64,000 nt of DNA from an uncultured bacterium (GCA_947646655.1 CANSHI010000002.1:147123-211122); one strand, 5' to 3'; positions 37,791 through 59,057 are shown, numbered from the stretch's first letter. Program-made: numbers and translations. The notes: a model not told the origin generated them from the sequence alone.

Positions 37791-38168
37791 GACAAAGTTT
37801 TAGTCTGACAAGTGTTATACTAAGATATATTTATTATTGGCTTGAAAAAATTGTGTATAACGTATATAATTAATAATAGAAAAAGACCATTGAGAATAGC
37901 ACTTGATTGGAGAAGATTTTAGTATGGAAGAAAAGACTAGAATAAGAAAACAGTATTAATAGTGGTTATAGTGTGTGCTTTAATTTTGGTAGGAAATTTA
38001 GGATCATACGCTTTCTTCATAGGTCAAGTAGGACAAAATAGGAACGATATTTTTAGCACTAGAATATGTGGATGATTGGCAATGGCACTATAGAATTTCC
38101 GTTTGAAGTAAAGAACGGACAGTATTGAATAAAACATGTATTATATAAAAGGGAGAGTACGAAGAAGA

Positions 38169-39500: not shown

Positions 39501-39558
39501 GTGATGAACAACATTGAATAAAACATGTATTATATGAAAGTAAGAGGATAAAAGAGAA

Positions 39559-40923
39559 ATGAAAAAAAATAAAAAAATAATTCTTATTTCTGTTTTAGTA
39601 GTGACAATGAGTTTTTTAGTCTTGGTAAAATTATTAGATGATAAATTAGTAAAAAGGGAGGACTCTTTTATCGAACCTTTTTCCAAACAAAATCAAGCCT
39701 TAGCGGTATACATAGAAGACGAGAATAGTGACATAGGATATATTAAAAATGAATCTACAATCTTTCCGACAGAAGGATATATATTAAACATGGAAAAAAG
39801 TACGTGTACAAATGGTGGATCACTAAGTCAGGATTTGAGTACAAAAAAGATATCGCTAAGAATAGAACATAAAAGTAGTTGCTCATTGTACTTTGATAAA
39901 GAAATGCTTAGTGCTTCTGAAGTACTAGAAGCAAAGATTGCAAACGCAAAATCATCAGATAATCTAAATTTTGCAGAGCCAGCGACGACTGATGAAACGT
40001 CCGATGGATTTTATGTCATGGAAGATGACTATGGAACGAGCTATTATTATCGAGGTGCCACAACAGATAACTATGTCAAATTTGCAGGGTTCTATTGGAG
40101 AATTATACGAATCAATGGAGACGGTTCATTACGTATTTTATATGATGGAACTGAAGCTCATGCAAATGGAGTGAGTAGTGCGAATAGATTAGCATTACAA
40201 AGAATGGCATGGAATACACCAAACTACAACGATGCAAAATATGTAGGATATATGTATGGAGGAGCAAACGGGGTAGCAAGTACAAATAAAAGTGAAGCAC
40301 AGGCAAATGAGACAAATACTAATATAAAAACTGAGCTAGAGAATTGGTATAAGATGAACATAGCAGATAAAGGATATGGTGAGTTTGTAAGTGACGTCAT
40401 ATATTGTAATGACCGGACAACACCAGGGAGTAGTGTAACATTATGGACAAGTGATACAGGATTAGGATATGGATGGCAAACAACAGGATATGGTGCACTG
40501 TCACGAATAATGACAGGGAATAATAGTACAAGTTTAAGTGGAAAGGATAATCCAAAACCGAAGTTCAAATGTGAGAATAAGAATGATGCATTCACAAAGG
40601 AAGATACAGAGAAAGGAAATGGAAAGCTAGAACAAAAAGTGGGAATGATAACAGCAGATGAAATATTAGCAGCAGGAAGTGGAAAGTATAATACAAATAA
40701 TAGCAGTTATTACTTATATAAAGGGAATTGGTATTGGTCGCTCTCGCCTTGTGATGTATATGGCTGGTATGCTCGTGCGTTTATTGTCGATAATAGTGGG
40801 TATATTTACGATACTAATGTTAATAGCTTGGGCGGTGTCGCCCCAGTAATCTCGCTGAGTGCAGAATATGTAAGTACAATGAAGGGAAATGGTACCATGA
40901 AAAAACCATTTGAAGTGAAATAA
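39559..40923 (+). CDS. Membrane-anchored extracellular protein, tandem paralogue B
   Basis: Same architecture and shared blocks (GYGALSRIMTGNNSTSLSGKDN, KFKCENKNDAFTKED, KGNGKLEQKVGMITADEI); RBS AGAGGA. Confidence 0.6.
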   Translation: MKKNKKIILISVLVVTMSFLVLVKLLDDKLVKREDSFIEPFSKQNQALAVYIEDENSDIGYIKNESTIFPTEGYILNMEKSTCTNGGSLSQDLSTKKISLRIEHKSSCSLYFDKEMLSASEVLEAKIANAKSSDNLNFAEPATTDETSDGFYVMEDDYGTSYYYRGATTDNYVKFAGFYWRIIRINGDGSLRILYDGTEAHANGVSSANRLALQRMAWNTPNYNDAKYVGYMYGGANGVASTNKSEAQANETNTNIKTELENWYKMNIADKGYGEFVSDVIYCNDRTTPGSSVTLWTSDTGLGYGWQTTGYGALSRIMTGNNSTSLSGKDNPKPKFKCENKNDAFTKEDTEKGNGKLEQKVGMITADEILAAGSGKYNTNNSSYYLYKGNWYWSLSPCDVYGWYARAFIVDNSGYIYDTNVNSLGGVAPVISLSAEYVSTMKGNGTMKKPFEVK

Positions 40924-41062
40924 GCAAAAAACTTATTTCTTTTTTCTTACCGAAAAAATAAATACTTTATTTGTTAATAATTTACATTAATATAAATTTG
41001 TGCTAGAATATAGCTTGTCAATGAAAGGGCGAGTAAATAATTTAGCTAAGGAGGGCGACTAT

Positions 41063-42509: not shown

Positions 42510-42730
42510 TTATTTACGAAGATTATGAATTTTAGTAGTAGTTTATATTTTCTTATAGAGAGAAGTGGATTAGCTGGAAGCACTTTAGAAAATAAACTTA
42601 CGAATTTCAATCATAGGAGTAAAACGTAGTTGGGCGTTAACCAAAAAGAGAGCTAGAGATTCTAGAAATTGGGTGGTACCGCGGTTTTTAAAAATCGTCC
42701 CATGATCTGGATTTTTTTTAATGGAAAGGA
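42510..42730 (+). ncRNA. T-box riboswitch leader (Phe specifier) controlling pheS-pheT
   Basis: The canonical T-box sequence AAATTGGGTGGTACCGCGG lies at 42666-42684; AGAGAG (AG-box-like) and a UUC-containing loop (GAATTTCAAT) lie upstream; a T-run follows at 42711-42719. Confidence 0.75.
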
Positions 42731-43779: not shown

Positions 43780-46158
43780 ATGATGCGAATTAGTACAAGT
43801 TGGCTTAACGACTATGTCGATATTAGTGATGAAAATTTAAAAGAGCTTGCCGATAAAATTACTAATGCTGGTGTTAATGTTGAGACTGTTGAAGAATATA
43901 ATACACCTAATCTAGTCGTTGGACATGTATTGGAATGTGAAATGCATCCCGATTCAGATCATTTACATGTTTGTAAGGTCGATGTAGGGGATGAAGTATT
44001 ACAAATAGTTTGTGGTGCCCCAAATGTAGGAGCTGATAAGAAAGTTATCGTATCTAAAGTAGGGTGCCTGTTACCTGGTGACATCGAAATTAAAAAGTCA
44101 GTAATGCGTGGTGTAGAATCTAATGGTATGTTATGTGCTTTGTCAGAGTTAGGATTAGAAGAAGATACTCCTGAAAATCATGCAAAAGGTATCCATATTT
44201 TGCCTGATGAAGCGATTGTAGGTAGTAATCCATATAATTATTTAGGATTAGATGATACGATTTATAATTTAGATTTGAACCCTAATAGAGAAGCAGATTG
44301 TACGAATCATATCGGATTTGCCTATGAAGTTGCAAGTGTACTAGGTCGCAGGGTTGAGATGCCTGAAACATGGAGCAATCCTGTAAAAGAAAGTGTGACT
44401 GATGAATTAGAAGTCGATGTTATTACAGACAATTGTACAATGTATAATGCTAGAAAAGTTAAAAATGTAGTTATTAAAGAAAGTCCTGAATTTATTAGAA
44501 ATAGACTAACGAATTGTGGGATGAGATCGATCAACAATGTAGTCGATATAAGCAATTATATTATGTTGGAATATGGTCAACCTCTTCACTTTTTCGATGC
44601 TAAAAAATTAGGTAATAGTATACTAGTTAGAATGGCCGAAGATGGTGAAGAGATAGTTACGTTGGATAATGAAACAAGAAAGTTAACTGGCGAAGATATT
44701 GTTATTACTGACGGAGAAAAACCAGTTGCTATCGCTGGTATAATGGGAGGAATAAATAGTTGTATCGATGAAAACACTACCGATGTAGTTATCGAGTCTG
44801 CTATATTTGATCCTTTAAAAATTAGATATACTTCTAAGAGATTAGATTTAAAAAGTGAAGCTAGTAGAAGATATGAACATGGATTAAATCATGAGTATAC
44901 GATGAATGCAATTGACAGGGCATGTTATTTACTAGAAAAATATGCTGATGCAGAAGTATTGTCTGATACGATTACACACGATATAATAGATAAAACTCCT
45001 AAAGTAGCCAAAGTATCATTAGAAAAAATTAATACACTTTTAGGATTAGAATTAACTTTGGAGGATGCAAAAAGATCTTTAGAAAATTTACAGTTTCCAT
45101 ATGAATTAAAAGAATCTGAATTTATCGTTACAATTCCGATTAGAAGAGGCGATGTTTCTATGAGAGAAGATCTTGTAGAAGAGATTGGAAGACTTTATGG
45201 TTATGATAAAATTGTTGGTAAACTTCCTAAGTTAGATGTAAGACGTGGAGTATATGTCGGTAATGTCGGTTTAAGAAAAAGCATTTCTAAAAGACTAAGA
45301 TCTTTAGGTCTTAATGAAACTAGAACTTATACTTTGATCAGTCCTAGTATGGACAGTCTATTTCAATATAATCGTGGCAATTCTATTACTCTTTTAAAAC
45401 CTATGAGTGTCGATAAATCTATTGTTAGACAAACACTTTTACTGTCATTATTAAATGTTTATGATTATAATATTGCCCATGGAGTAAAAAATATTAATAT
45501 ATATGAAATCGCAAATACTTATAGTGATGTCGATATAGAAGATGAAAAGTTGACAGTTTTAATGAGTGGCGAATATATGAGTAATATGTGGCAAGGGATT
45601 AAAGTTAAAGCTGATTTTTACTTATTAAAAGGTATTATAGAAAATACTCTTGAGTATTTAGGTTATAAAGGTAGAATTAGTTTTGCCGAATCGTGTGATA
45701 TACCAAATATGCATCCAGGTGCTACGGCAATTATAAATATTGATAATAGGGAAGTAGGATTTATAGGTAAAATTCATCCTTTACTTTGTAAGCAAGAAGT
45801 TTACTGCTTAGAGATTTCTCTTAAAAAATTAGCGGAGAAAAAAACACGTGGATTTAAGTTTAAGGAAATGAATAAATTCCCTAGCATTGTTAAAGATGTT
45901 GCCTTTGTAATGCCAGATGATATGTCTTCTTCAGTTGTGGAAAAAGAGATTAAAAGAAGTGGCGGTAAACTATTATTAGATATTCAAGTGTTCGATTTAT
46001 ATAAGGGAGATAATATTGGAAATAATGAAAAATCTATTGCCTATTCTTTAACTTTTGAAAGTGAAGAGAGAACTCTTACAAGTGATGAAGTAAATGATCT
46101 TTTCAACAGAGTTATCGATGAAGTTTGCACGAAGTTAAATCTTAGAATTAGAAATTAG
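43780..46158 (+). CDS. pheT: Phenylalanine--tRNA ligase beta subunit
   Basis: 792 aa; tRNA-binding OB N-terminus, B3/B4, B5 and FDX-ACB order; ATGATG start right after pheS. Confidence 0.9.
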   Translation: MMRISTSWLNDYVDISDENLKELADKITNAGVNVETVEEYNTPNLVVGHVLECEMHPDSDHLHVCKVDVGDEVLQIVCGAPNVGADKKVIVSKVGCLLPGDIEIKKSVMRGVESNGMLCALSELGLEEDTPENHAKGIHILPDEAIVGSNPYNYLGLDDTIYNLDLNPNREADCTNHIGFAYEVASVLGRRVEMPETWSNPVKESVTDELEVDVITDNCTMYNARKVKNVVIKESPEFIRNRLTNCGMRSINNVVDISNYIMLEYGQPLHFFDAKKLGNSILVRMAEDGEEIVTLDNETRKLTGEDIVITDGEKPVAIAGIMGGINSCIDENTTDVVIESAIFDPLKIRYTSKRLDLKSEASRRYEHGLNHEYTMNAIDRACYLLEKYADAEVLSDTITHDIIDKTPKVAKVSLEKINTLLGLELTLEDAKRSLENLQFPYELKESEFIVTIPIRRGDVSMREDLVEEIGRLYGYDKIVGKLPKLDVRRGVYVGNVGLRKSISKRLRSLGLNETRTYTLISPSMDSLFQYNRGNSITLLKPMSVDKSIVRQTLLLSLLNVYDYNIAHGVKNINIYEIANTYSDVDIEDEKLTVLMSGEYMSNMWQGIKVKADFYLLKGIIENTLEYLGYKGRISFAESCDIPNMHPGATAIINIDNREVGFIGKIHPLLCKQEVYCLEISLKKLAEKKTRGFKFKEMNKFPSIVKDVAFVMPDDMSSSVVEKEIKRSGGKLLLDIQVFDLYKGDNIGNNEKSIAYSLTFESEERTLTSDEVNDLFNRVIDEVCTKLNLRIRN

Positions 46159-46195: not shown

Positions 46196-46285
46196 ATAGT
46201 GCAACTAAAAAGTTACACAAATACAACTTAAATTTGGTAGAATGCAACCCGCGTTCCATGTTATATTTTTTACGAGGTGAAAGAA

Positions 46286-47818
46286 ATGAGTTTTAATGAA
46301 AAGTTACAAACTTTAAGAAAAGAAAAGAAATTATCACAAGAGCAACTAGCGGATATGCTCGATGTAACGAGACAGTCAGTTTCGAAGTGGGAATCAGGTA
46401 CAACTTATCCTGAAATGGATAAATTGATTATGTTGTGCAAAATATTTAAATGTAGTTTAGACGACTTAACTAATGATGAAGTTACGAATCTCAATATTTC
46501 TGAAAAGAGAGAAGGGACACAAAATAATTTTTTAAGAAGCATATTAGATATTATTACGAAAACGGTTTATATGTTTAAAGCGATGAGTTTTAAGCAAATT
46601 ATCGGTTGCATTATTTCGATGTTTATACTAGCTTTAATATTGTTAATATTTAGGATTCCTTTTAGTTTAATTGAAGAAGGTTTTAGAGATGTAATTTATT
46701 CTTTACTTACAAATATTAGGGCACAAAAGATAGTGATGGGGTTATTTTGTTTTATACTTGATATAATTTACTATGCACTTTATATACTCGTTTATGTATA
46801 TATTTATAAGTTAGCTTTTTTAGACAAATATGAGTTTGTCGATAAGGTTGAGAAGAAAACACTAATAACTAATGAGACCGATACTGTAAGTGAGAAACAT
46901 GAATCTGTTAAAGAAGTCATTATAACGAATAAAGAGTCACATGAAAATTCTTTATTTAAGCTTTTAGGAACTTTAGCACTTGGTTTTATAAAATTTTTAA
47001 CTATAGTGTTTAGTTTTCCAATAATATTTATTTTAATAATATTATTTTTCTTCATTGTATTTGCATTATATTTTATGTTAGAAGGAATATTCTTTTTTGG
47101 TATATTGTTGGGATTAATTTTTGCAGCTATATTAGTTATATGGTTCTTAGTTTTAGTTAGTAGTTTTATATTTAACAAAAAGGTATCTTTTAAAAAAATG
47201 CTTTTAGTTTTTCTTATCAGTCTTATAGGATTAGGAATATCAAGTGGTATTACCGTTTTAGAGATTTCTAAGTTAAATTATAAATCTGATGTACTGGTTG
47301 ATGCAGAAGAGAAAAATGTGACTTTTGAAAAAAGCATGAGTGAAAGTTTATATATCGATATGTACAACCATTATGGAAATTTATTATATGAAGAAAATGA
47401 AACACTGGACAATGTTTTAATCGAAGTTCATTATTATGGTAAGATGTATAAAATAGATTTGCTAGAAAGTAAAGATGTAATAGATTTTGATATATATTAT
47501 AGTGATGAGTTTGATAGAACGAAGTTTATGTTTAAAACAATTAAAGATGGATTAAAAAAACGAGAAATATATAATTTAGATAAAATTTTACGTTATGATA
47601 TTAAAATAAAAGCTAATAGTAAAAACATAAATAAAATAAAACAAAACACTATAAGTTATTGGGAAAGTGTTAGAGAAAAAGAAAGAGAAGATAGTTGCAA
47701 TTCTTATAATATATCTATTTTGGATTACGAAAATAGATATAATGAATTGTTAGAAGAAAACGAATATTTAAAAGAGAGAATAGACATATTAGAAGAAGAA
47801 ATACGAGAAAATGAGTGA
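46286..47818 (+). CDS. Membrane-tethered XRE-family transcriptional regulator
   Basis: The N-terminal HTH_XRE (LRKEKKLSQEQLADMLDVTRQSVSKWESG) is followed by multiple TM helices and a C-terminal coiled-coil (EENEYLKERIDILEEEIREN); the track start is GTG and ATG 46286 follows GAGGTGA. Confidence 0.65.
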   Translation: MSFNEKLQTLRKEKKLSQEQLADMLDVTRQSVSKWESGTTYPEMDKLIMLCKIFKCSLDDLTNDEVTNLNISEKREGTQNNFLRSILDIITKTVYMFKAMSFKQIIGCIISMFILALILLIFRIPFSLIEEGFRDVIYSLLTNIRAQKIVMGLFCFILDIIYYALYILVYVYIYKLAFLDKYEFVDKVEKKTLITNETDTVSEKHESVKEVIITNKESHENSLFKLLGTLALGFIKFLTIVFSFPIIFILIILFFFIVFALYFMLEGIFFFGILLGLIFAAILVIWFLVLVSSFIFNKKVSFKKMLLVFLISLIGLGISSGITVLEISKLNYKSDVLVDAEEKNVTFEKSMSESLYIDMYNHYGNLLYEENETLDNVLIEVHYYGKMYKIDLLESKDVIDFDIYYSDEFDRTKFMFKTIKDGLKKREIYNLDKILRYDIKIKANSKNINKIKQNTISYWESVREKEREDSCNSYNISILDYENRYNELLEENEYLKERIDILEEEIRENE

Positions 47819-47836
47819 CTCGTATTTTTTAATGTT

Positions 47837-48265
47837 TTATAATAAAAGTTGTATTTTTATATATAAATTATTTTCTTCATTTTTTAAATTGTTTATATGA
47901 GTTTGGAGTATTTGGTTAATCGATGTATTTTCATATTTCGCTTGTAAATCATTCATATATGTTAGGGCATCCTTTTTAAAGTTAAAAACTTTAATTTCAT
48001 AATAGTCAGATACGACATGGTTTTTTGAGTAAAAGACACCAACTCGATAGTCTAGAAGATTGATTGTTTCTAAACAGATTAAAACTTTTATATTAGAAAA
48101 ATGGTATTCATTGATAATAAGCTTTTTAGCATTTTCAGCGGATATATTTTTAATTTTTGTTTTTGGATCGTAATGTTTTAATAAAGTATAATATTGTTTA
48201 CGAAGGTTTTTAACTGATAATTCTTTTTGTATCAGGTAATCGAATGTGTCATCAATAATATGCAT
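47837..48265 (-). CDS. Hypothetical 142-aa protein (repeat copy A)
   Basis: Identical to 51602..52030 except for the last residue; no recognisable motif. Confidence 0.55.
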   Translation of the reverse strand: MHIIDDTFDYLIQKELSVKNLRKQYYTLLKHYDPKTKIKNISAENAKKLIINEYHFSNIKVLICLETINLLDYRVGVFYSKNHVVSDYYEIKVFNFKKDALTYMNDLQAKYENTSINQILQTHINNLKNEENNLYIKIQLLL

Positions 48266-48368
48266 AGGCTGGCCTTTCTTGACTTTATTATATCACATTC
48301 TGCTCGTATTTAGGTCATTTTATCGAATAAAATAAAATTTTTTGCGAAAATTGTATATAAGGTGGTAT

Positions 48369-48830
48369 ATGATGAATAGCACAAGATTTACTGATTTACG
48401 TGAAGAATTGGAGCTAAGTAGGAAAGAGTTAGCTCAAAAGCTAGATGTTTCACCTTCTGTATATGGAAGATGGGAGAGAGCTAAGGCTACTATTCCAACA
48501 GAAAGAATGTATCAATTATCTAATTTTTATCGTGTTAATTTAGACTATTTACTTTCTTTTATAGATGATAAAGTTGAAATATTAAGTGATGACGAAATCG
48601 ATATGGACTTAGTTTCTAAAAGAATAAAAGAGATTAGAACTGACACAGGTGAAACTTTAAGAGCTTTTGTCAAAAGATTAAATACTACAAATTCTACTTG
48701 GAGTGCATATGAAACAGGTAAAGTTCTAATATTAGCAGACTTTTTGTTGGAGATATGTAAAAAGTATAATTATTCTGCTGATTGGATTTTAGGTAGATCT
48801 GATGTAAAGTTTAGAAATATTGAAGACTAA
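48369..48830 (+). CDS. Tandem-HTH XRE-family transcriptional regulator (repeat copy A)
   Basis: Two consecutive HTH_XRE domains (LSRKELAQKLDVSPSVYGRWER; TGETLRAFVKRLNTTNSTWSAYETG); ATG after AAGGTGG; divergent from the 142-aa gene. Confidence 0.7.
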   Translation: MMNSTRFTDLREELELSRKELAQKLDVSPSVYGRWERAKATIPTERMYQLSNFYRVNLDYLLSFIDDKVEILSDDEIDMDLVSKRIKEIRTDTGETLRAFVKRLNTTNSTWSAYETGKVLILADFLLEICKKYNYSADWILGRSDVKFRNIED

Positions 48831-48980
48831 AAAATCTATTTTTGAAAATTTTGTTACTAATTAAATACTATATTCAGATTAAATATAGTGTTTTTTATTA
48901 TATTAAATAATTATAACTTTTATTTTAAGTTTTCTGTTTTTGTGATAAAATATAACTAGAAGAAAGGAAGAAGACATTTT

Positions 48981-49628
48981 ATGAAAATAACTAAATACCC
49001 TCAATCATGTTTATTGGTTGAAACAAATAACAAAAAAATATTAGTAGATGCAGGAGGATTAAAATACAAAGAAAAATATTTTGATATATGGAAACAAGCT
49101 GATATTATTTTATTAACTCATAAGCATGGCGATCATGTAAATTATGATGTTTTAAAAAATATTGATGTTCCTATTTATTCTACTTTAGAGGTACAAAATA
49201 CTTACCCTGAATTAAAAATTAATATTATTAAAGAAAATGATAATATTCCTTTAGATAATATAAATATTGAAGTTGTTAAAGCCGTTCATGGCTATAATCC
49301 AAATTTAAAAAATGGTGGCGAAGTATTTGAAAATGTAGGTTATATAATTAATGATAATAAAACAAGACTTTATATAACAAGCGATACAATATGTTTTAAC
49401 AATGATTATAAAGCCGATATTGTTGCTTTACCTGTTACAGCCTATGGATTAACAATGTCTAGTTATGAAGCATCTTTATTCGCAAAGGATTTAGGCGCTA
49501 AATTAGTTCTACCTATTCACATGGATAATGAAAAATATCCTACTAATTTAGAATATATGAAAAATAATTTTGAAATATTTGATATAAATTATGAAGTATT
49601 AGAAATTGAAGAAAGTTTGGAGGTTTAG
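48981..49628 (+). CDS. Small MBL-fold metallo-hydrolase
   Basis: HxHxDH motif LTHKHGDHVNYD; 215 aa; RBS GAAAGGAAG. Confidence 0.7.
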   Translation: MKITKYPQSCLLVETNNKKILVDAGGLKYKEKYFDIWKQADIILLTHKHGDHVNYDVLKNIDVPIYSTLEVQNTYPELKINIIKENDNIPLDNINIEVVKAVHGYNPNLKNGGEVFENVGYIINDNKTRLYITSDTICFNNDYKADIVALPVTAYGLTMSSYEASLFAKDLGAKLVLPIHMDNEKYPTNLEYMKNNFEIFDINYEVLEIEESLEV

Positions 49629-50011
49629 ATAGGGAAAAAAATTATTAAGTTTATGACAAGTGACAGAGAAATAATATATTCAAACTTTTGTAAGAATTTT
49701 TAAAAATATCGCTTACAAATATATCATGAATTTAAAAATTCAAATATAAGTAATTTACATAAATCCTTTTTCAACTCAGAATATTGTCGGATTATTAAAT
49801 TATAATCATACTTATTACAAAAGATTTGAAAGTGGTTAAAGAAAATCTTATAAATAATTACCTTTTTTATGTTTTTGCATAAAATTTCTTTTTTTATAAG
49901 GAGAAAAAATTTTGATGCATCAAATAGTAACATTTAATCAACTTATTCCAAAGTTGACGACCTTTGGCAATTTATAATTGAAGGTGGTTTATACGAAATT
50001 TATCATTTGTA

Positions 50012-50941
50012 TTATAAATCTTTTAATTTTTCAAAATTTTCTGGTAAATGTATTATAGATAGTAATTGATTTCTATTAAGTGAACCGATTTCTTCATCAT
50101 ATTTAGTTATTAAATCTGATAAATTATCTATTAATATATTAAACTTATTTTTACTTGAAAAAATCTTAATAGATATTAAAATCGCAAACAAATCTTTTTT
50201 ACCTTGTATTATATTATTATTTTTATCTTTCTTTAAATTAAATTCATTATGATATTTAGTTGTTTTAATACCTAATTTATCATCAATAAATGATAAAAGA
50301 ATATCATCGTGGCAGCATATATTCCTTACTCTAACAAGTAATCTTAACATATTGGCAACTTCATTACTATTAATTTTTTCACTAGTTAATTTTTTCTTCA
50401 TATAATCTTTATCATTAGTTTTAGATACATAGAACATATCACGTATCATACCAAATGATAATATTTTCATATATACCCATAATGGAATAAATGAATGATT
50501 ATTCCTATAAAACATTACAGCTTTATTTTTATTACCAAAATCATTTAATTGTTTATCTAAATTAGATAATGTATCACTTAAGTAATTATTTGATAAATTA
50601 TAATTATTGCTATTTAATATATCATTAACTTTAAATCCATATCTATAACAATAATTGTTAATGTAAATTGTTTTTAATTTTTGTTCTATTTCAAGTATAG
50701 AATCTAAAACAATTAACTTTAACATTTTATCAAATATATATAATGAGTATATATCTTCAAAAGAAGTATTATCTTTATAAGTTCCATCAATATTTTTGAA
50801 AGCAAACTTATAACCCATAATAAAATAATAATTATTAGTTTCCAAAATGTTTCTAACATTATTTTCGTTTTTAATATTAATATTTTTAGATTTAATGTTA
50901 TTTATTAATTCATCAATAGTTAAAAAAGTTTTTTCTGACAT
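50012..50941 (-). CDS. Abi_2 (AbiD/AbiF-like) abortive-infection family protein
   Basis: The N-terminus LTIDELINNIKSKNINIKNENNVRNILETNNYYFIMGYKFAF follows the Abi_2 pattern (..eq...L..rGl.i.d...a...L..i.YYrl.gY); about 310 aa; the internal ATG after AGGTGA is preferred over the track start. Confidence 0.6.
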   Translation of the reverse strand: MSEKTFLTIDELINNIKSKNINIKNENNVRNILETNNYYFIMGYKFAFKNIDGTYKDNTSFEDIYSLYIFDKMLKLIVLDSILEIEQKLKTIYINNYCYRYGFKVNDILNSNNYNLSNNYLSDTLSNLDKQLNDFGNKNKAVMFYRNNHSFIPLWVYMKILSFGMIRDMFYVSKTNDKDYMKKKLTSEKINSNEVANMLRLLVRVRNICCHDDILLSFIDDKLGIKTTKYHNEFNLKKDKNNNIIQGKKDLFAILISIKIFSSKNKFNILIDNLSDLITKYDEEIGSLNRNQLLSIIHLPENFEKLKDL

Positions 50942-51062
50942 ATAATCATCACCTGTAATTATTATATCAGAAAAAGACACAAAAGAATAATCCTTTGTGT
51001 GCTCACTTGCAGGAAATTATATTCCTACACTAATAATATATGCAAATATTGAATAAATATAC

Positions 51063-51093
51063 AAAAAAGACTGGAAGACCGTAGTTCTTTCCA
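51063..51093 (-). terminator. Candidate minus-strand terminator upstream of the Abi gene
   Basis: CTGGAAGA...TCTTTCCAG hairpin; on the minus strand it is followed by TCTTTTTTG. Confidence 0.4.
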
Positions 51094-51511
51094 GTGCTCA
51101 CAACTAAATATTACCAAAAATAGATGGTTTTGTCAAATCATTTTGTAAAAGTTTTATGATAATGTCAGTATAAATAGTTTTTTGAAAATGACAGTAAATT
51201 GATAAAATAAATAATGGTAATATCCCATATATATTATTTGGCTTTCTTTGTGATATTTGTTTATCTATTGGCCAAATAAAGGTAATAATAAATCTAACGA
51301 AATTGCTACAATACCTGAACTTTTAGGTATACGATGTTAAAGGCAAGATTATAACAATTAATGCTATCGGTACTCAAGAAGAAATTGACTCGTTATCTTT
51401 ATGATTTTCACAATATTGAGAATTTTATTTTCAACATTATTCCTTTTCTTTAGTATTTCTCTTTACGTCTTTTTTTATGTGATTGCCTTATGCGTTTGAT
51501 ATTAAAATACA

Positions 51512-51544
51512 AGTAGTAAATTAGTAGTAAATTAGTAGTAAACT
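51512..51544. repeat. 3 tandem copies of an 11-nt unit (AGTAGTAAATT)
   Basis: Seen directly, in the roughly 600-bp non-coding stretch between the Abi gene and repeat copy B. Confidence 0.8.
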
Positions 51545-51601
51545 GGTATATTCTTTTGCATAAGTCTATAAATAAAGTTTTTAATAATTAAATTACAATT
51601 T

Positions 51602-52030
51602 TTATGATAAAAGTTGTATTTTTATATATAAATTATTTTCTTCATTTTTTAAATTGTTTATATGAGTTTGGAGTATTTGGTTAATCGATGTATTTTCATA
51701 TTTCGCTTGTAAATCATTCATATATGTTAGGGCATCCTTTTTAAAGTTAAAAACTTTAATTTCATAATAGTCAGATACGACATGGTTTTTTGAGTAAAAG
51801 ACACCAACTCGATAGTCTAGAAGATTGATTGTTTCTAAACAGATTAAAACTTTTATATTAGAAAAATGGTATTCATTGATAATAAGCTTTTTAGCATTTT
51901 CAGCGGATATATTTTTAATTTTTGTTTTTGGATCGTAATGTTTTAATAAAGTATAATATTGTTTACGAAGGTTTTTAACTGATAATTCTTTTTGTATCAG
52001 GTAATCGAATGTGTCATCAATAATATGCAT
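51602..52030 (-). CDS. Hypothetical 142-aa protein (repeat copy B)
   Basis: Duplicate of 47837..48265. Confidence 0.55.
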   Translation of the reverse strand: MHIIDDTFDYLIQKELSVKNLRKQYYTLLKHYDPKTKIKNISAENAKKLIINEYHFSNIKVLICLETINLLDYRVGVFYSKNHVVSDYYEIKVFNFKKDALTYMNDLQAKYENTSINQILQTHINNLKNEENNLYIKIQLLS

Positions 52031-52133
52031 AGGCTGGCCTTTCTTGACTTTATTATATCACATTCTGCTCGTATTTAGGTCATTTTATCGAATAAAATAA
52101 AATTTTTTGCGAAAATTGTATATAAGGTGGTAT

Positions 52134-52595
52134 ATGATGAATAGCACAAGATTTACTGATTTACGTGAAGAATTGGAGCTAAGTAGGAAAGAGTTAGCTC
52201 AAAAGCTAGATGTTTCACCTTCTGTATATGGAAGATGGGAGAGAGCTAAGGCTACTATTCCAACAGAAAGAATGTATCAATTATCTAATTTTTATCGTGT
52301 TAATTTAGACTATTTACTTTCTTTTATAGATGATAAAGTTGAAATATTAAGTGATGACGAAATCGATATGGACTTAGTTTCTAAAAGAATAAAAGAGATT
52401 AGAACTGACACAGGTGAAACTTTAAGAGCTTTTGTCAAAAGATTAAATACTACGAATTCTACTTGGAGTGCATATGAAACTGGTAAAGTATTAATATTAG
52501 CAGACTTTTTGTTGGAAATATGTAAAAAGTATAATTATTCTGCTGATTGGATTTTAGGAAGATCTGATGTAAAGTTTAGAAATAATGAAGACTAA
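52134..52595 (+). CDS. Tandem-HTH XRE-family transcriptional regulator (repeat copy B)
   Basis: Duplicate of 48369..48830 with 2 aa substitutions. Confidence 0.7.
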   Translation: MMNSTRFTDLREELELSRKELAQKLDVSPSVYGRWERAKATIPTERMYQLSNFYRVNLDYLLSFIDDKVEILSDDEIDMDLVSKRIKEIRTDTGETLRAFVKRLNTTNSTWSAYETGKVLILADFLLEICKKYNYSADWILGRSDVKFRNNED

Positions 52596-52757
52596 AAATT
52601 CTTTTTAAAGTAAAGAAGAAAAATACGTGAAATAAATGAGATATTTAATCTTTAGATTAGTTATAAGAAAATATTTAAATAGTATTTTTTTTTTAAATTA
52701 TTTATTGTATAATATCCATAATGCATAGGTATTTTAGATTTTATACGGGAGGAACGC

Positions 52758-55058
52758 ATGTTAAAACTAACAAATATAAAAAAAGAATATCAGGGAAAAG
52801 TAGTTTTAGAAGATATAAATTTAGAGTTACCAAATAAAGGGTTAGTTTTATTAAAGGGTCAAAACGGCTCAGGTAAAACTACTTTATTAAATATAATTGG
52901 TGGACTTGAGACTCCCACAAGAGGTTATATAGAGATAGATAATAAAAAACTATCAGTAAGAGAAAAAGAACTTTGTAAGTATCGAGAGGAATATATAAGC
53001 TATATATTTCAAGAAAATAATTTATTTGATAATTTGAGTGTAGAAGAGAATATAAATATAACAGGTAAATCTGAAAAATTTGACGAGATAGTAGAAATAT
53101 TAAAACTAAGAAAACTATTAAATCAAAAGGCAAAAAGTTTATCAGGAGGGGAAAAACAGAGAGTAGCAATAGCAAGAGCAATTACAAAAAAGTCAAAAAT
53201 AATATTAGCGGATGAGCCGACTGCATCAATAGATGCGGAGTCTAAAGATATAATATTAAAATTACTTAAAGAGCTGAGTGAAAGTAGATTAGTAATTTTA
53301 ATATCTCATGATAAAATAGAAATACCTTATTTTGTAGATGAGACTATGTGTTTAAGTCAAGGTAAAGTAACTTTTATGAACAAAAAGAAAGAAAAAAAAG
53401 AAGAATTAGAAGATATTTCAAAATATTATAATAATTTTAACTGTTATCAGTTTACTTTTAAACATCTTTTTGTTAACAAAAAAATGCTAATAAGAAATAG
53501 CATAATTTTAATCTTTCTTATTTTCATACTTTTTATATCATTAATTATCTCTTTTGAGAATATAATGGATGTTCATATTAACACTTTGTTAGCAGAAAAC
53601 GATACTTCATTGATGATTAGTAAACAAAAAGAGTTGGAAGATTTTTCGTGGATAAATGATCGTGATGGCTTTTTAGAAGAGGATCTTGAATATTTTGATG
53701 ATTTAAAATTTAAAAATTCTTTTATTGATCTTAAAACTATACAAGCTCATTACGAACCGGTAAAGTTTGAGATACCTTTTTTACCAGGAAATAGTTATTT
53801 GATCAATCTTAATCAGTTATATTATGCTTCCGATAATTATATTAATCCGAAATATGGAAAAAAGCCTACCTATAAAAATGAAATTGTAATTTCTACATAT
53901 TTAGCAGATAGTATAGTAGAATTTGGAATAATTGATAGTCAAGAAGAAACATTTTATCCTAAAAATTATGAAGATTTATTAAAAACAGATAAATATTTAA
54001 AATTAGGGCCTGCAGACGTTAAAATTGTAGGAATATACGAACTAGATTTGAATAATTATAATAACATAAAAACTGGTAATTTTAATGCAGAACAATATGA
54101 AATATTTAAAAGATATGTTAATAAGTATGCTAGTATTGTGTATGTAAAAGACAGTTTTTATGATCTGTATAAGGATTTAGAATCTTTGCTATATCAAGAT
54201 ACAAAATTTTACATATTAGAAGAAGAATTTACTTATAATATAAATGTTTTTAATAAACCTATAATATTGGAGAATGGAAATACTATAAATGAATTAGCTG
54301 ATAACGAAATTATAATTGGTGAAGAGATTATAAAATTATTAAATGTTAGTAGTAATAGCGTAGACGAAAGTATAGTCTTAACTATAAAATCAAATACTGC
54401 AGGAGTAAAAAAAGATTTATCATTTAAAATAGTTGGAGTATCACAAGCTAATGAAATATATATTAACGAAAGAAATGTTAGTGATTTTTATTCTAAAAAT
54501 ATTGTAGTTAGCAATGTTTTAGTCAACGGATATAGTAAAGAAGATTTAAAAAATATTTTTAATATTTTTCCTTACTACAATAATAAATATATATTATCAA
54601 CTTGTTTTAGTGAAAAATATATTATTATAGAAAAAGAGATAAAAATTATTAAAATTGTGTTAATTATTTTTTCTATAATTTTAATAAGTATAATTATAAT
54701 TTGTGTTATAAATTATTTATTTGATAGTATTGAATTGCACAAATCTGATATATCAATACTTAAATCGTTAGGTATACATGATTCAAAAATAATGTCTTTA
54801 TTTTTTATCGAATCATTTATTGTATTGTTTATTTCTTATATAATAGCTATAGGAATATTTTTACCGATCAGATTGATGTTTAATGTTTATTTTTCTACTA
54901 AAGTAGCATTTAAATGTGAGATTATTCATAATAGTATTTTTATAATAATATTATCGGGAATAATATTATTAATGGCTGATTCGGCTATATTATTTCGTAT
55001 ATTAAATAAAATTAAAAATATATCTCCTAAGGTTATTACAGGAAGTAGTGAATTATAA
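52758..55058 (+). CDS. Fused ABC transporter: ATP-binding domain plus FtsX/MacB-like permease, paralogue 1
   Basis: Walker A GQNGSGKTT, signature LSGGEKQR, Walker B ILADEP; the C-terminal half has an N-proximal TM, a large extracytoplasmic domain and a C-terminal 3-TM bundle; RBS GGGAGGAA. Confidence 0.8.
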   Translation: MLKLTNIKKEYQGKVVLEDINLELPNKGLVLLKGQNGSGKTTLLNIIGGLETPTRGYIEIDNKKLSVREKELCKYREEYISYIFQENNLFDNLSVEENINITGKSEKFDEIVEILKLRKLLNQKAKSLSGGEKQRVAIARAITKKSKIILADEPTASIDAESKDIILKLLKELSESRLVILISHDKIEIPYFVDETMCLSQGKVTFMNKKKEKKEELEDISKYYNNFNCYQFTFKHLFVNKKMLIRNSIILIFLIFILFISLIISFENIMDVHINTLLAENDTSLMISKQKELEDFSWINDRDGFLEEDLEYFDDLKFKNSFIDLKTIQAHYEPVKFEIPFLPGNSYLINLNQLYYASDNYINPKYGKKPTYKNEIVISTYLADSIVEFGIIDSQEETFYPKNYEDLLKTDKYLKLGPADVKIVGIYELDLNNYNNIKTGNFNAEQYEIFKRYVNKYASIVYVKDSFYDLYKDLESLLYQDTKFYILEEEFTYNINVFNKPIILENGNTINELADNEIIIGEEIIKLLNVSSNSVDESIVLTIKSNTAGVKKDLSFKIVGVSQANEIYINERNVSDFYSKNIVVSNVLVNGYSKEDLKNIFNIFPYYNNKYILSTCFSEKYIIIEKEIKIIKIVLIIFSIILISIIIICVINYLFDSIELHKSDISILKSLGIHDSKIMSLFFIESFIVLFISYIIAIGIFLPIRLMFNVYFSTKVAFKCEIIHNSIFIIILSGIILLMADSAILFRILNKIKNISPKVITGSSEL

Positions 55059-55217
55059 AGTTTTCTTGTCTTGTAATTATTCTTAAAAAAAAACTGTCAA
55101 AATGGTTTTTGGCAGATATTAGAAACTTTTTATAGACTTTATTCGTTATTTGAGTTATACTTGTCCTAGAAATACTAAACTATAAAATAGTGGTATAGAA
55201 TTAGGATAGTGAATAGC

Positions 55218-57500
55218 ATGTTAAAGCTAACAAATATAAAAAAAGAATATCAGGGAAAAGTAGTTTTAGAAGATATAAATTTAGAGTTACCAAATAAAGG
55301 GTTAGTTTTATTAAAGGGTCAAAACGGCTCAGGTAAAACTACTTTATTAAATATAATTGGTGGACTTGAGACTCCCACAAGAGGTTATATAGAGATAGAT
55401 AATAAAAAACTATCAGTAAGAGAAAAAGAACTTTGTAAGTATCGAGAGGAATATATAAGCTATATATTTCAAGAAAATAATTTATTTGATAATTTGAGTG
55501 TAGAAGAGAATATAAATATAACAGGTAAATCTGAAAAATTTGACGAGATAGTAGAAATATTAAAACTAAGAAAACTATTAAATCAAAAGGCAAAAAGTTT
55601 ATCAGGAGGGGAAAAACAGAGAGTAGCAATAGCAAGAGCAATTACAAAAAAGTCAAAAATAATATTAGCGGATGAGCCGACTGCATCAATAGATGCGGAG
55701 TCTAAAGATATAATATTAAAATTACTTAAAGAGCTGAGTGAAAGTAGATTAGTAATTTTAATATCTCATGATAAAATAGAAATACCTTATTTTGTAGATG
55801 AGACTATATGTTTAAGTCATGGTAAAGTAAGTTTTATGAGAAGACTAAATATTGATATTGCAACTTCTAAAATAAACAATAGAAATAATGTATACAATTT
55901 TAATATCTTAAGTTTTACGAAAAAAAATTTTATAACTGACAAAAAGAAAACTGTCAGAAACAGTATTTTACTGCTGATTACATTTTTGTTTCTGCTGTTA
56001 ATATCCTCTATCTCAAGCATCGATTTTAAAATGATGTTAGTTGACACCTTAACTTTGGAAAAAGATAATTTGTTAATGTTTAATAAATCAAACAGTACAA
56101 TTAATGATTTCAAGGAACAAGAAATAGTTTTTTTTAAAAATAATATTAATTCGGAAAAATTAGAATTAGGCTATAGTATAGAAGATAATTATAAATCAAT
56201 CAATTTTGAGATTAACTATAATTTTGGCAAATCATTAAATAATTTATATTTTTTGAATGCTAAGTTTATAGAACCAGATTACGGAACTAAGCCAATGAAA
56301 GATGATGAAATTGTTATATCGTCATACTTAGCTGATTTAATTATTCAGTCTAATGTTGATAACAATATAAATAGTTCTACTAATTATGAAACTTTAGTTA
56401 ATGGATTTTCGTTGAAATTAGGTAATCACTTAGTTCGTATTGTTGGAATATATAAAGTTAATTTGCCATCGTTACAAGAAATGAAAGTAAAAAATATTTA
56501 TAAGCAAGAAATATATGAAGAGATTATTAAAAATAGTGCAAGTAACATATATGTAACAGATAACTTTTTTAATATTTATGATGACTTAAATAAAGTAATT
56601 GATGTGGAGAATTATGTTTTTCCTTATAAAGAGTTTCAACCTAATCAAACTTCCTTTGGTGGATATGATCCGCATTCATTTAAAATTTTTAAAAATTCCG
56701 TAAATCTAGTAGATGGGACACTTATAAAAGGCATAGATGATCATGAAATTATTGTAAACACTGATGTATTAAATTATGAACATTTAAAGGTTAATGATTG
56801 TATTGGTAAAGAAATAATATTTAATATAGGTGATAATAATTATAATAACATTGGTAAAATTAAAGGTGTTATTAAGGGAGTATCAGCTGATAATAATATA
56901 TATATAAATCAGAGCAATATTCCTGAATATTTGACTAGTAATATAAAAATTAGAAAAGTAATGATTCATGAGGATAATCGAGAATTATTAGAAAGTTTAA
57001 TTACAAATGATCCTTTATCTTTTAATGAAAATACTTATGTAGTTTGGACTAATTATAGTAAAAAATTTGAAAATTTGAAATATACAATTGAAGTATTAAA
57101 AAATATTTCAATCGTAATCACAATAATTTTTTTAGTAATATCTGTAGCGTTCTTATTTAATTATGTTAAATCTAATATTGAATTACATAAAAAAGATATA
57201 GCCATTTTAAAATCATTAGGCATATCAAATGTTAAAATAATGCAATCTTTTCTTTATAAATCGATAAACTTAACTATAGTGGCATTAATTTATTCTTTAT
57301 TTTCATTTGTTATCATACGATTTATAATCAATGTGACAGTTAGTAATATTTTGGCCTTTAAAACAAATATTATTCCATTACGCTGGTATCTGTTATTGTT
57401 AATCCCTATTTTATCTTTATTGATAAATTGTTTAATATCTTTATTAACCTTTAATAAGATTAATAAGATATATCCTCAAACTTTATTAAAGAAGTTTTAA
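55218..57500 (+). CDS. Fused ABC transporter: ATP-binding domain plus FtsX/MacB-like permease, paralogue 2
   Basis: The first roughly 200 aa are identical to paralogue 1 and the permease half is divergent; the start is placed at MLKLTN by analogy, whereas the track starts 3 codons earlier. Confidence 0.8.
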   Translation: MLKLTNIKKEYQGKVVLEDINLELPNKGLVLLKGQNGSGKTTLLNIIGGLETPTRGYIEIDNKKLSVREKELCKYREEYISYIFQENNLFDNLSVEENINITGKSEKFDEIVEILKLRKLLNQKAKSLSGGEKQRVAIARAITKKSKIILADEPTASIDAESKDIILKLLKELSESRLVILISHDKIEIPYFVDETICLSHGKVSFMRRLNIDIATSKINNRNNVYNFNILSFTKKNFITDKKKTVRNSILLLITFLFLLLISSISSIDFKMMLVDTLTLEKDNLLMFNKSNSTINDFKEQEIVFFKNNINSEKLELGYSIEDNYKSINFEINYNFGKSLNNLYFLNAKFIEPDYGTKPMKDDEIVISSYLADLIIQSNVDNNINSSTNYETLVNGFSLKLGNHLVRIVGIYKVNLPSLQEMKVKNIYKQEIYEEIIKNSASNIYVTDNFFNIYDDLNKVIDVENYVFPYKEFQPNQTSFGGYDPHSFKIFKNSVNLVDGTLIKGIDDHEIIVNTDVLNYEHLKVNDCIGKEIIFNIGDNNYNNIGKIKGVIKGVSADNNIYINQSNIPEYLTSNIKIRKVMIHEDNRELLESLITNDPLSFNENTYVVWTNYSKKFENLKYTIEVLKNISIVITIIFLVISVAFLFNYVKSNIELHKKDIAILKSLGISNVKIMQSFLYKSINLTIVALIYSLFSFVIIRFIINVTVSNILAFKTNIIPLRWYLLLLIPILSLLINCLISLLTFNKINKIYPQTLLKKF

Positions 57501-57558
57501 TTGGTTTGTATTTTAATTTAATATATTAGAATATAAATAGAAAGAAGGTAAAGACTTT

Positions 57559-58035
57559 ATGAAAATGAAAAAAATTTTGTTAATTGCTTTTGCATTTGTT
57601 GCTAGCATATTTGTGGCACAAGATGTTCATGCTGCGTCATATACAATAAATTTTAATAATTTTAACAATTATCAAAATCTTGGAGCTGCTTCGACTTTTG
57701 GTGGAATTAGCCGGATTAAATATGTCAAAGTTAATGTAACTAGTACAACAGGTAAATATACCGTTGAATTTGGAAGACAAATAGCATCTGCTGGCAGTTA
57801 TGAGATGGTTTCACAAGCTATTTCTACCTATAATGGTGCAAGCACTATTTATTTCATTCCTCAAAGCATGAGTTGTCCATCAGGATATACAACATGTGTG
57901 ACAGTTTCAGAATCAAAGCCAGGAGTTAGTCATGATTATATTTCTGATAATACATTAAGATCAATCGTATATCTAAAGAGTAAAGCAGTTTTAGGATCAT
58001 CAAAGATGACGGGTTCAATTACAGTATATAATTAA
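57559..58035 (+). CDS. Small secreted protein (signal peptide, Cys pair)
   Basis: MKMKKILLIAFAFVASIFVAQDVHA/AS signal peptide; about 130-aa mature part with CPSGYTTC; RBS GAAAGAAGG. Confidence 0.55.
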   Translation: MKMKKILLIAFAFVASIFVAQDVHAASYTINFNNFNNYQNLGAASTFGGISRIKYVKVNVTSTTGKYTVEFGRQIASAGSYEMVSQAISTYNGASTIYFIPQSMSCPSGYTTCVTVSESKPGVSHDYISDNTLRSIVYLKSKAVLGSSKMTGSITVYN

Positions 58036-58239
58036 AAAGTTAAACTATCAATTGATAAAATTGGTAGTTTTATTAATAGCTTTCGAATTTTATTGCTATT
58101 ATTTTTGCTCGTAACCATTAACATTTTTAAAATTCTTTTTATATCCTATAATTGGCATTTTTACCTTCTAAAATTAAAACCACTTATCTAGTTTAAGTGG
58201 TTCATATATTAACTACAAAATTTTGTAGTACCAGTCTAT

Positions 58240-58314
58240 TGGAGGAACCGACCAGATTTGAACTGGTGATCAGGGTGTTGCAGACCCACGCCTTACCACT
58301 TGGCTACGGTTCCA
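58240..58314 (-). tRNA. tRNA-Cys (anticodon GCA)
   Basis: The minus strand reads GGAACCG-TA-GCCAAGTGGTAAGGC-G-TGGGT-CTGCAAC-ACCCT-GATC-ACCAGTTCAAATCTGGT-CGGTTCC-T-CCA, a cloverleaf with a TTCAAAT T-loop, anticodon loop CU-GCA-AC, and encoded CCA. Confidence 0.85.
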
Positions 58315-58547
58315 TTATTGTGAAAATAGAGTTTTCACAGATAATTGTATTTTACAATATTATATTATTAAAGTCAATGCATTTTGTTGTCTGACCATTA
58401 TATTTTATGCGATTTTAAACTGAAAATGATTATAAATTTATTTTCATTATTATTTTTGCTGAAATTCTAACAATCATAATTAATTTTAATATATAAATAT
58501 ATTTATATTTAAGTAATAAAAAAGAGTCTAATAATAAACTCAAATAT

Positions 58548-59057
58548 TTATTCAAAGTAAATAGAATTAAGAATCATTTTTATATCTTCTAAATCATAAA
58601 ATTGCTTAGTTATACGGATAAGATATACTTTTCCGTTATGATATAAATTTAACTCGTTAAAAGAATCTATATTTAAAGTTTCATTACTATAAAGGCCTTT
58701 TAAATCACCCTTTATTTCATAAAAAATTTTGTGTGATTGATTTTTTCCTGAACTCGTGAAATATTTTGACCAGTGTAACATCTTAATTTTAGAAATGCTT
58801 GATAATATATTTGGTTTTTTATCTTTATTAGTTTCGGCATATTTTACTAAATCTAATTCTTCTTTTATATCATATTTTTTGGTTAGATAATTAATATCTT
58901 TTTCAGTCGTATTTTCTATTACATAAGGAAAGTCATCGTCATAAACTGTTACCCAAAAATGAATTTTACCTTCGGCTTTATAAAAGTATCCAATTTCTCC
59001 TCTATCCGAAGTTACCGAAGTCTCTTCATAAATTTTATCTCCTAAACGAATATGCAT
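58548..59057 (-). CDS. Hypothetical protein
   Basis: 169 aa, no motif; weak RBS. Confidence 0.45.
   Translation of the reverse strand: MHIRLGDKIYEETSVTSDRGEIGYFYKAEGKIHFWVTVYDDDFPYVIENTTEKDINYLTKKYDIKEELDLVKYAETNKDKKPNILSSISKIKMLHWSKYFTSSGKNQSHKIFYEIKGDLKGLYSNETLNIDSFNELNLYHNGKVYLIRITKQFYDLEDIKMILNSIYFE

Follow-up and report, generated by a model that had tools for sequence, protein, structure and literature searches.

A duplicated divergent gene pair, an orphan protein and a tandem-HTH regulator, near tRNA-Cys in an uncultured member of the Bacilli

Concerted evolution of bacterial paralogs by gene conversion is well known from tufA/tufB and from the rRNA operons, and in regulatory modules of the CapH/CapP family a metallopeptidase (M78/COG2856 type) accompanies the regulator. 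CapH has its binding site in the promoter of its associated operon, and CapH/CapP modules occur with many different systems (bioRxiv 10.1101/2022.04.27.489752); gene conversion that outpaces point mutation has been documented in bacterial repeats (PMC12046097). Here, we describe a gene pair that is present twice, as a direct repeat of ≈1 kb, in a 64,000-nucleotide (nt) stretch of DNA, the window, from a low-GC (≈30%) uncultured member of the Bacilli (GCA_947646655.1 CANSHI010000002.1:147123-211122). Each copy contains one minus-strand open reading frame (ORF) for a 142-residue protein that we term p142, a 103-bp intergenic region, and one plus-strand gene for a regulator with two helix-turn-helix (HTH) domains of the XRE type. 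We consider it probable, at roughly 0.6, that this pair is a self-regulating, lineage-specific chromosomal module, that the second copy (copy B) is a paralog within gained accessory DNA, and that the interior of the two copies has been homogenized by gene conversion.

The two copies (Table 1) are collinear at a constant offset of 3765 nt, with nine mismatches (99.1% identity) at positions 47841, 48689, 48716, 48725, 48726, 48752, 48794, 48820, and 48834 in copy A numbering. An earlier, sequence-only reading of the window had described a gene pair of ≈1 kb, ≈99% identical and in direct repeat, and the alignment supplies the exact list of differences for that description. The left limit of the repeat falls 2 nt past the p142 stop codon and the right limit 3–7 nt past that of the regulator (the ORF of regulator A ends at 48830), which bears out the view that the duplicated unit is the complete divergent gene pair; beyond these limits, identity drops to background within a few bases. 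Copy A precedes a metallo-β-lactamase (MBL) fold hydrolase and copy B a tandem of ATP-binding cassette (ABC) exporters, again as had been stated. A third copy of the pair was not found within the window.

The mismatches are distributed unevenly along the repeat. Eight of the nine lie in its last 146 nt (binomial P = 1.6e-6), and an 847-nt core carries none, an outcome with a chance of ≈2e-21 at the divergence rate of those last 146 nt. The regulators of the two copies differ by six synonymous changes and one non-synonymous change; because all seven fall within the last 48 codons, we estimate the local synonymous divergence in the 3′ end of the regulator gene at ≈0.2. The repeat thus has an identical tract that ends abruptly within a longer stretch of homology, the rest of which retains older divergence, as in concerted evolution. 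We take this pattern as the signature of older, functional paralogs whose interior was recently homogenized or, alternatively, of one 3′ end imported from another strain. The sequence-only reading had proposed a very recent duplication or ongoing gene conversion, which is a fair account of the identity pattern, subject to the caveat on assembly that is taken up below.

The pair has a fixed place in the chromosome. Homologs of p142 occur at 19 loci, which represent five sequence lineages besides the window's own, and wherever the contigs extend far enough, the gene order is pheS, pheT, a membrane HTH gene (≈510 residues), p142, and regulator, even in the lineage whose p142 is only 29% identical. 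Sequence of tRNA-Cys follows the pair in five of the five contigs that reach that far, with matches of 41–62 nt at 100% identity at the ends of loci L001, L006, and L010. In the window, pheT lies at 43780–46158, and its closest relatives (up to 77% identity) are gut metagenome-assembled genomes labeled Bacilli, Erysipelotrichaceae, or Tenericutes. Among genus-level relatives without the pair, the membrane HTH gene still adjoins pheT.

What follows the regulator differs from strain to strain. In L001 and L006, the pair is single-copy, and the regulator is followed by ≈200 nt with a strong terminator hairpin and then by tRNA-Cys. In L007, L009, and L010, the pair is likewise single-copy and is followed by the first ≈17 codons of the abortive-infection (Abi) gene that lies between the two copies in the window, its leader, and ≈760 nt of noncoding DNA; L010 is the only one of these three contigs to reach tRNA-Cys. 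There, a deletion has removed the MBL gene and most of the Abi gene. In L048 and L049, a match to the 5′ half and upstream flank of tRNA-Cys (window 58269–58378; 82–83% identity) follows the regulator in the opposite orientation, and the regulator/tRNA-Cys junction has therefore also been inverted during evolution. Copy A has the membrane HTH gene on its left, and both this flank and the 58 nt downstream of the copy (48836–48893) are common to single-copy strains such as L001. Copy B is flanked on its left by anonymous AT-rich DNA and on its right by sequence leading into the ABC genes, and neither flank is present in the single-copy strains. On these grounds, copy A is the resident copy.

The ≈0.2 local synonymous divergence between copies A and B is comparable to the whole-gene distance of the regulator from the L001 lineage (0.22). 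In the 3′ tract of 146 nt, A differs from the single allele of L007 at five positions and B at four, versus eight between A and B, so that each copy is nearer the L007 allele than the other. Copy B could accordingly be the allele of another strain that arrived with the ABC cassette, through recombination of two variants of the tRNA-Cys island, one with pair-MBL-Abi and one with pair-ABC; such an event would involve a homology anchor at the tRNA side, an illegitimate join at 51599/51600, and later conversion of the interior. Island content does vary between strains at exactly the regulator/tRNA-Cys junction. However, a strain with pair-ABC alone was not found, later conversion is still needed to account for the 847-nt identity, and the alleles at the eight variable 3′ sites form a mosaic with no clear donor. 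We regard this import as unlikely.

Searches for identical copies of the two regulators and the MBL protein all led to a second, independent public assembly, NODE_868 of ENA ERZ14425207 (28.7 kb; loci L052–L054), which has the same two-pair layout and is 99.77% identical to the window over 18.8 kb. Between the window and this contig (L053), there are 43 substitutions and a single indel, which shifts the frame of the Abi gene by 1 nt. Every substitution is within a repeat family, against none in ≈13.6 kb of unique DNA. The two copies of the pair account for 24 of the 43: nine sites are changed in parallel in both copies, five differ in copy A only (where L053 has the copy B allele), and one differs in copy B only (where L053 has the copy A allele). 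Another 16 belong to the repeat at the 5′ end of the ABC genes, at eight sites that are parallel in both genes, and three are in a third paralog family (40608–40627), where only one matches the base of the paralogous copy. Counting the nine pair sites and the eight ABC sites in both copies, 34 of the 43 substitutions are parallel. Within L053, the only differences between the two copies are those at 47841, 48820, and 48834.

The differences between the assemblies can be read in two ways. In the first reading, the concerted evolution is real, with conversion faster than point mutation and with different haplotypes and tract ends fixed in each strain. In the second, a short-read assembler walks a path L-R-M-R-N with one collapsed repeat, and copy differences survive near the edges only; the retained differences indeed lie ≤146 nt (window) or 15 nt (L053) from a repeat edge. 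Repeat collapse in assembly would give the same pattern of parallel differences as concerted evolution, and the lack of substitutions in unique DNA fits either collapse or very rapid conversion. The evidence for concerted evolution comes from assemblies, and L053, a SPAdes node of low coverage (4.9), spans a 978-nt identical repeat. Position 48794 favors real conversion, as both copies of L053 carry a T there although the retained difference at 48820 is only 26 nt away, which is hard to produce by k-mer collapse alone.

An assembly effect might also reach further than the interior of the repeat. There might be one chromosomal copy only, the second having come from graph resolution, either of a 3765-bp circle with the pair, the MBL gene, and the Abi gene beside a pair-ABC chromosome or of a mixture of two strain variants; the L-R-M-R-N graph is the same for a tandem arrangement and for a chromosome plus circle. 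In a milder form, both copies would be real, their interior differences would have been collapsed, and identity would be nearer 98%. The confinement of differences to the repeats (40 substitutions, 34 of them parallel, against ≈13.6 kb of unchanged unique DNA) and their survival only near repeat edges are what such an effect would leave behind. The copies nevertheless have different, intact flanks, and the left junction of copy B at 51599/51600 must exist in the reads because it shares no long k-mer with any other site. Moreover, in L007, L009, and L010 the Abi leader stands behind the pair in the chromosome, on the way to tRNA-Cys (which L010 reaches); a sister lineage thus had the MBL-Abi segment in its chromosome, which makes a circle plus chromosome unlikely, and no replication gene was found in the segment between the copies. 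Altogether, we hold an assembly origin to be improbable, and even under collapse, the true identity of the copies would still be ≈98% or higher. These two near-identical assemblies, which differ only in repeats, are nonetheless a warning that short-read contigs can create or hide copy differences.

The regulator is a member of the XRE (Cro/C1) family by its Pfam matches, and the earlier assignment of two HTH_XRE domains stands. HTH_3 covers residues 10–61 (E = 1.4e-18, 67.1 bits, cutoff 23) and HTH_19 residues 84–141 (E = 2.1e-18, 66.4 bits, cutoff 30.2), and each model matches two stretches. The most likely start is the ATG at 48369 (52134 in copy B), which the ribosome-binding site AAGGTGG precedes. 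Among solved structures, the HTH of ICEBs1 ImmR is the nearest relative (7t8i, E = 5e-5); PADLOC gives a weak capH match (E = 8.7e-7, residues 3–63) and NCBIfam sub-threshold matches to the MqsA, PezA, and HigA models. A structure model from the single sequence was unusable, with a predicted local distance difference test (pLDDT) score of 43. The ratio of non-synonymous to synonymous divergence (dN/dS) of the regulator is 0.09. In a lineage with a 119-residue p142 homolog, locus L047 (Logan SRR24717549, 3–1363) has two tandem regulator genes, both ≈70–72% identical to the window regulator.

Several elements of the intergenic region are invariant across lineages: a first block GCTCGTATTT.G.TCA, a second block TTT.TGCGAAAATT, the ribosome-binding site, and an extended −10 of p142 of the form TGNTATAAT, which in the window is the reverse complement of 48287–48295. 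The 21-mer TGCTCGTATTTAGNTCATTTT is exact in 19 of 19 loci that carry p142 and in 0 of 32 genus-level loci without it. On the minus strand, this 21-nt block spans the spacer and −35 region of the predicted p142 promoter, and it lies ≈25–40 nt upstream of the second invariant block TGCGAAAAT, which may act as an extended −10 for the regulator itself or as a second operator. The second regulator of L047 carries its own copy of both conserved blocks without a p142 gene, which indicates that these blocks have a role in expression of the regulator as well. JGI metagenomes yielded no exact match to the operator-like block. A promoter and terminator scan of this AT-rich DNA was uninformative, with as many promoter-like matches as in shuffled sequence.

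The sequence-only reading saw in the pair what looked like a portable regulatory switch ahead of two operons, and a cassette of this kind, like CapH/CapP or BrxR-type modules, would control the MBL gene and the ABC exporters. Some features of the locus suit such a role. Each regulator is co-directional with its payload, which begins 150–162 nt further on with no strong terminator in the interval; the AbiD/F-type gene gives the surroundings the look of a defense island; the weak capH match points the same way; and the second regulator of L047 suggests that "operator + regulator" can duplicate as a unit. The comparative evidence, however, does not support portability. In place of several unrelated contexts, we find a single gene order at 19 loci in five other lineages, and the pair exists without payload, because sister strains have the pair followed directly by tRNA-Cys or by the Abi remnant. 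Allowing up to three mismatches, we found the 21-mer and the 16-mer nowhere in the window but in the two copies, and no operator copy lies upstream of the MBL, Abi, or ABC genes; the first ABC gene (ABC1) has its own predicted extended −10, TGTATAAT, at ≈52706–52713. Neither an integrase nor att or terminal repeats accompany the pair, and its partner protein is not a peptidase (no M78, no HExxH). Finally, regulators A and B differ by one C-terminal residue and are therefore interchangeable; two such near-identical proteins cannot control two operons independently. A portable switch is thus very unlikely, and the MBL and ABC genes are best described as neighbors of the pair, their standing as targets being unsupported.

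The p142 protein belongs to a small family. A word-indexed search of 5.8 billion clusters returned three relatives at 86–97% identity, and an exhaustive phmmer search of 1.84 billion representatives returned three more distant ones (41%, 37%, and 30%); a profile search with the seven p142 sequences found no further members. No relatives were found in GTDB species representatives, JGI metagenomes, or IMG/VR, and in exact look-ups the window's own p142 proteins were not on record. In keeping with the earlier statement that the 142-residue partner has no recognizable family, there is no significant match in Pfam, NCBIfam, PHROGs, PADLOC, or PDB sequences; the leads are all sub-threshold (DacZ_A, 18 bits; the Menshen effector NsnC in PADLOC, E = 7e-4, 17 bits). 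Neither M78 nor any other peptidase was matched in Pfam, NCBIfam, or PADLOC, and the sequence has no HExxH. The dN/dS of p142 versus the L001 lineage is 0.13, the same as that of neighboring genes, and p142 is therefore a real gene, forming a narrow orphan family. As judged by sequence comparison, both copies of the pair appear to be under purifying selection.

An AlphaFold2 model of p142, built with the seven-sequence alignment, reached a pLDDT of 85.9 and a predicted template modeling (pTM) score of 0.77. The predicted fold consists of a long N-terminal helix, a four-stranded antiparallel β-meander, and two C-terminal helices, with a poorly ordered loop at residues 33–46, and it gave no structural match. 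Between the window and the L048 lineage, amino acid identity is 82% for pheT, 72.5% for the regulator, 58% for the membrane HTH protein, and 29% for p142. In the separate comparison of the window with L053, five of the six p142 nucleotide differences are non-synonymous. These changes (H31Y, two in the codon of T36, I41T, and N45T) cluster in low-confidence loop residues 31–45, between helix 1 and strand 1 (window ≈48130–48175 and 51895–51940), whereas all three differences in the 5′ part of the regulator are synonymous.

We also considered whether, in a small clade of gut Bacilli, p142 and the tandem-HTH regulator might form a new toxic or defense effector module under repressor control, resembling a toxin-antitoxin or abortive-infection system. 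The charges of the two proteins are compatible with this, as an acidic regulator could be both an operator-binding repressor and a neutralizer of the basic p142. The fast evolution of p142 (29% identity vs 72.5% for the regulator) and its variable loop at residues 31–45 are compatible as well, and so is the position of the second copy in a defense-type island, where conversion between copies could spread loop variants. We rate this idea as decidedly doubtful.

We therefore return to a chromosomal module with a paralogous second copy as the preferred account. The pair would normally be single-copy, between the pheST and membrane-HTH genes on one side and tRNA-Cys on the other; in the strain of the window, this junction would have gained ≈9.3 kb of accessory DNA that includes a second full-length pair. 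Gene conversion within the chromosome would keep the interior identical, with the last ≈146 nt retaining older, mostly synonymous divergence, and part of the interior identity may come from an assembly effect instead. The regulator is predicted to bind the invariant block between the divergent promoters, overlapping the spacer and −35 of the p142 promoter, and the bound regulator would repress p142 and control its own transcription. Since the copies are interchangeable, the duplication would double dosage rather than provide two switches. The 1-kb direct repeats could also allow the 3765-bp unit with the MBL and Abi genes to be looped out or amplified.

Several points weigh against this account. 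An assembler that walks a collapsed repeat twice (L-R-M-R-N) would produce the interior identity and the parallel differences by construction, and it would also be expected to leave copy differences only at the edges (146 nt in the window, 15 nt in L053). A random duplication would rarely have both of its limits within a few bases of a stop codon, as this repeat has, and in-situ duplication and recombination of two island variants are both candidates for the origin of copy B. Binding by the regulator, both promoters, and any function of p142 are predictions. Lastly, read-through into the MBL and ABC genes is possible, as the sequence after regulator A offers only a weak AU-rich hairpin and that after regulator B nothing clear.

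The accessory DNA that separates the resident regulator from tRNA-Cys contains the MBL hydrolase, the AbiD/F-type gene with its leader, copy B, two MacB-like ABC exporters, and a secreted protein. GC content is 21–26% in the stretch from pheT to tRNA-Cys versus ≈31% upstream. A Pfam search of 46277–59057 found no integrase or transposase domains, and there is neither an att-like partial repeat of tRNA-Cys nor an inverted terminal repeat at the repeat limits. The spacer left of copy B holds no remnant of the membrane-HTH gene, which would have been a sign of a larger duplication; it contains an 11-nt unit, AGTAGTAAATT, three times in tandem at 51512–51548. A similarity between the 3′ end of the regulator and the 5′ end of the Abi gene, suggested by overlapping BLAST matches, proved to be an alignment artifact.

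The Abi gene matches Pfam Abi_2 (E = 8e-34, 117.9 bits, cutoff 25.6) and PADLOC AbiD (E = 7.6e-45). Its segment is 91.8% identical to L051 7417–8566, in an unrelated context that adjoins a UvrD helicase gene, and the gene with its leader thus behaves as a discrete cassette. In the leader, a promoter-like TTGACA-17-TAATAT site is accompanied by two "GTGAGCAC + hairpin + U-run" units and by one more hairpin (leader fold z = −3.5). The Rfam abiF motif RF03085 gave no match to it even at E ≤ 10. Sister strains retain the leader (L010 ≈940–1240) where the gene is deleted, and in L053 the Abi gene is frameshifted at 50195. The two ABC genes are identical over their first ≈590 nt (52756–53347 and 55216–55807), from the start codon through the whole ATPase domain, and beyond that share ≈33% amino acid identity; they are followed by a 158-residue protein with an N-terminal signal-peptide-like sequence. 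For the MBL protein, which is identical in L053, a precomputed Pfam table lists a faint match to Anti-Pycsar_Apyc1 (PF23023), and our own scan returned general MBL families only. One further public contig (0.2–1 Mb class) is recorded for the identical MBL protein and likewise for the identical 158-residue protein, and it may carry the same island. Elsewhere in the window, an ordinary T-box leader (Rfam, 101 bits) lies at 42510–42705, ≈1.1 kb upstream of pheT and presumably before pheS, and a tandem paralogous gene family with a period of ≈1420 nt and 74–84% identity occupies 38104–40924.

Table 1. Features of the locus, with positions counted from the first nucleotide of the window.
Feature	Position	Strand	Remarks
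Membrane-anchored HTH_XRE protein, 513 residues	46277–47818	+	Conserved left neighbor of the pair
Repeat copy A	47835–48835		Resident copy, ancestral flanks on both sides
p142 copy A	47837–48265	−	Orphan 142-residue protein, isoelectric point 8.8
Core, 847 nt, 100% identical	47842–48688 = 51607–52453		Candidate gene-conversion tract or collapsed repeat
Promoter/operator region copy A	48266–48368		103 bp between the divergent genes
Extended −10 of p142, TGATATAAT (predicted)	48295–48287	−	Alignment of orthologous intergenic regions
First invariant block, TGCTCGTATTTAGGTCATTTT	48301–48321		Alignment of orthologous intergenic regions
Second invariant block, TTTGCGAAAATTGTAT	48341–48356		Alignment of orthologous intergenic regions
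Regulator copy A	48369–48830	+	153 residues, two HTH_XRE domains, isoelectric point 5.2
Accessory DNA, ≈9.3 kb	48894–58122		From the regulator downstream flank to the tRNA-Cys region; absent from L001 and L006
MBL-fold hydrolase	48981–49628	+	Pfam Lactamase_B_3, E = 1.9e-20; 150 nt after copy A
AbiD/F-type (Abi_2) cassette	50007–51152	−	ORF 50012–50980 plus 172-nt structured leader
AT-rich anonymous spacer, 447 nt	51153–51599		Between Abi cassette and copy B; no ORF ≥ 35 residues
Repeat copy B	51600–52600		Extra copy inside the accessory insertion
p142 copy B	51602–52030	−	Last residue S (L in A), otherwise the same
Promoter/operator region copy B	52031–52133		Identical to A; operator block at 52066–52086
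Regulator copy B	52134–52595	+	Versus A: one residue near the C-terminus (N in B, I in A), 6 synonymous changes
ABC-ATPase/FtsX fused exporters, two in tandem	52758–55058, 55209–57500	+	162 nt after copy B
tRNA-Cys	58240–58313	−	Right neighbor of the single-copy pair in sister strains

Besides the warning on assemblies, the locus has modest value in two respects. With its confident predicted fold and a perfectly conserved operator-like block, the p142 family offers a clean regulator/operator system in uncultured gut Bacilli, and from the 1-kb direct repeats one would predict that a 3.8-kb unit carrying an AbiD/F-type defense gene is excised or amplified. The case is otherwise one of routine genome dynamics, a local duplication at a variable, tRNA-adjacent junction with signs of concerted evolution.

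Among described systems, the XRE repressors of phages and integrative and conjugative elements (ICEs), with the CI/Cro logic of lambda and ImmR of ICEBs1 as examples, share with this locus an HTH_XRE regulator that is divergent from its presumed target across a short operator-like region. Unlike these repressors, the window regulator combines two HTH domains in a single chain and lacks a C-terminal oligomerization or cleavage domain; the pair has no phage or ICE genes, integrase, or ImmA-like protease nearby and occupies a fixed chromosomal locus. CapH/CapP, together with ImmR/ImmA and DdrO/IrrE, also combines an XRE repressor with a partner gene beside defense-type genes. In contrast to those partners, p142 has neither a metallopeptidase domain nor HExxH, and the operator-like blocks are restricted to the pair's own promoter region, in a single gene order. 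We therefore rejected a CapH/CapP or ImmR/ImmA-type pair, as the partner is not a metallopeptidase and the predicted operator is not in the promoter of the neighboring operon. Type II toxin-antitoxin systems with an XRE antitoxin (HigBA, MqsRA, and PezAT) are similar in that an acidic HTH_XRE protein adjoins a small basic protein. The genes of the pair, however, are divergent across 103 bp instead of bicistronic, and p142 matches no toxin family or fold, which rules out a canonical type II operon. For the neighboring Abi cassette, the nearest parallel is AbiF of Clostridioides difficile, which has the RNA antitoxin RCd22 (PMC12373285). The layout of the window's Abi leader resembles RCd22 and may be analogous to the AbiF RNA antitoxin, although the Rfam abiF motif is not matched.

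With respect to the repeat itself, the locus resembles known cases of concerted evolution, including repeats in a Mycobacterium tuberculosis outbreak (PMC12046097), in its near-identical direct repeats and the sharp edge of the identical tract; the strain differences that appear in both copies would be a further likeness, unless repeat collapse produced them. It differs from those conversion cases in that the repeated unit is a small pair of regulator and orphan gene in an accessory island. Overall, the duplication belongs to the well-known class of paralogous repeats under gene conversion, and the finding as a whole is ordinary; its new part is the small p142 gene family, set within a known kind of arrangement.

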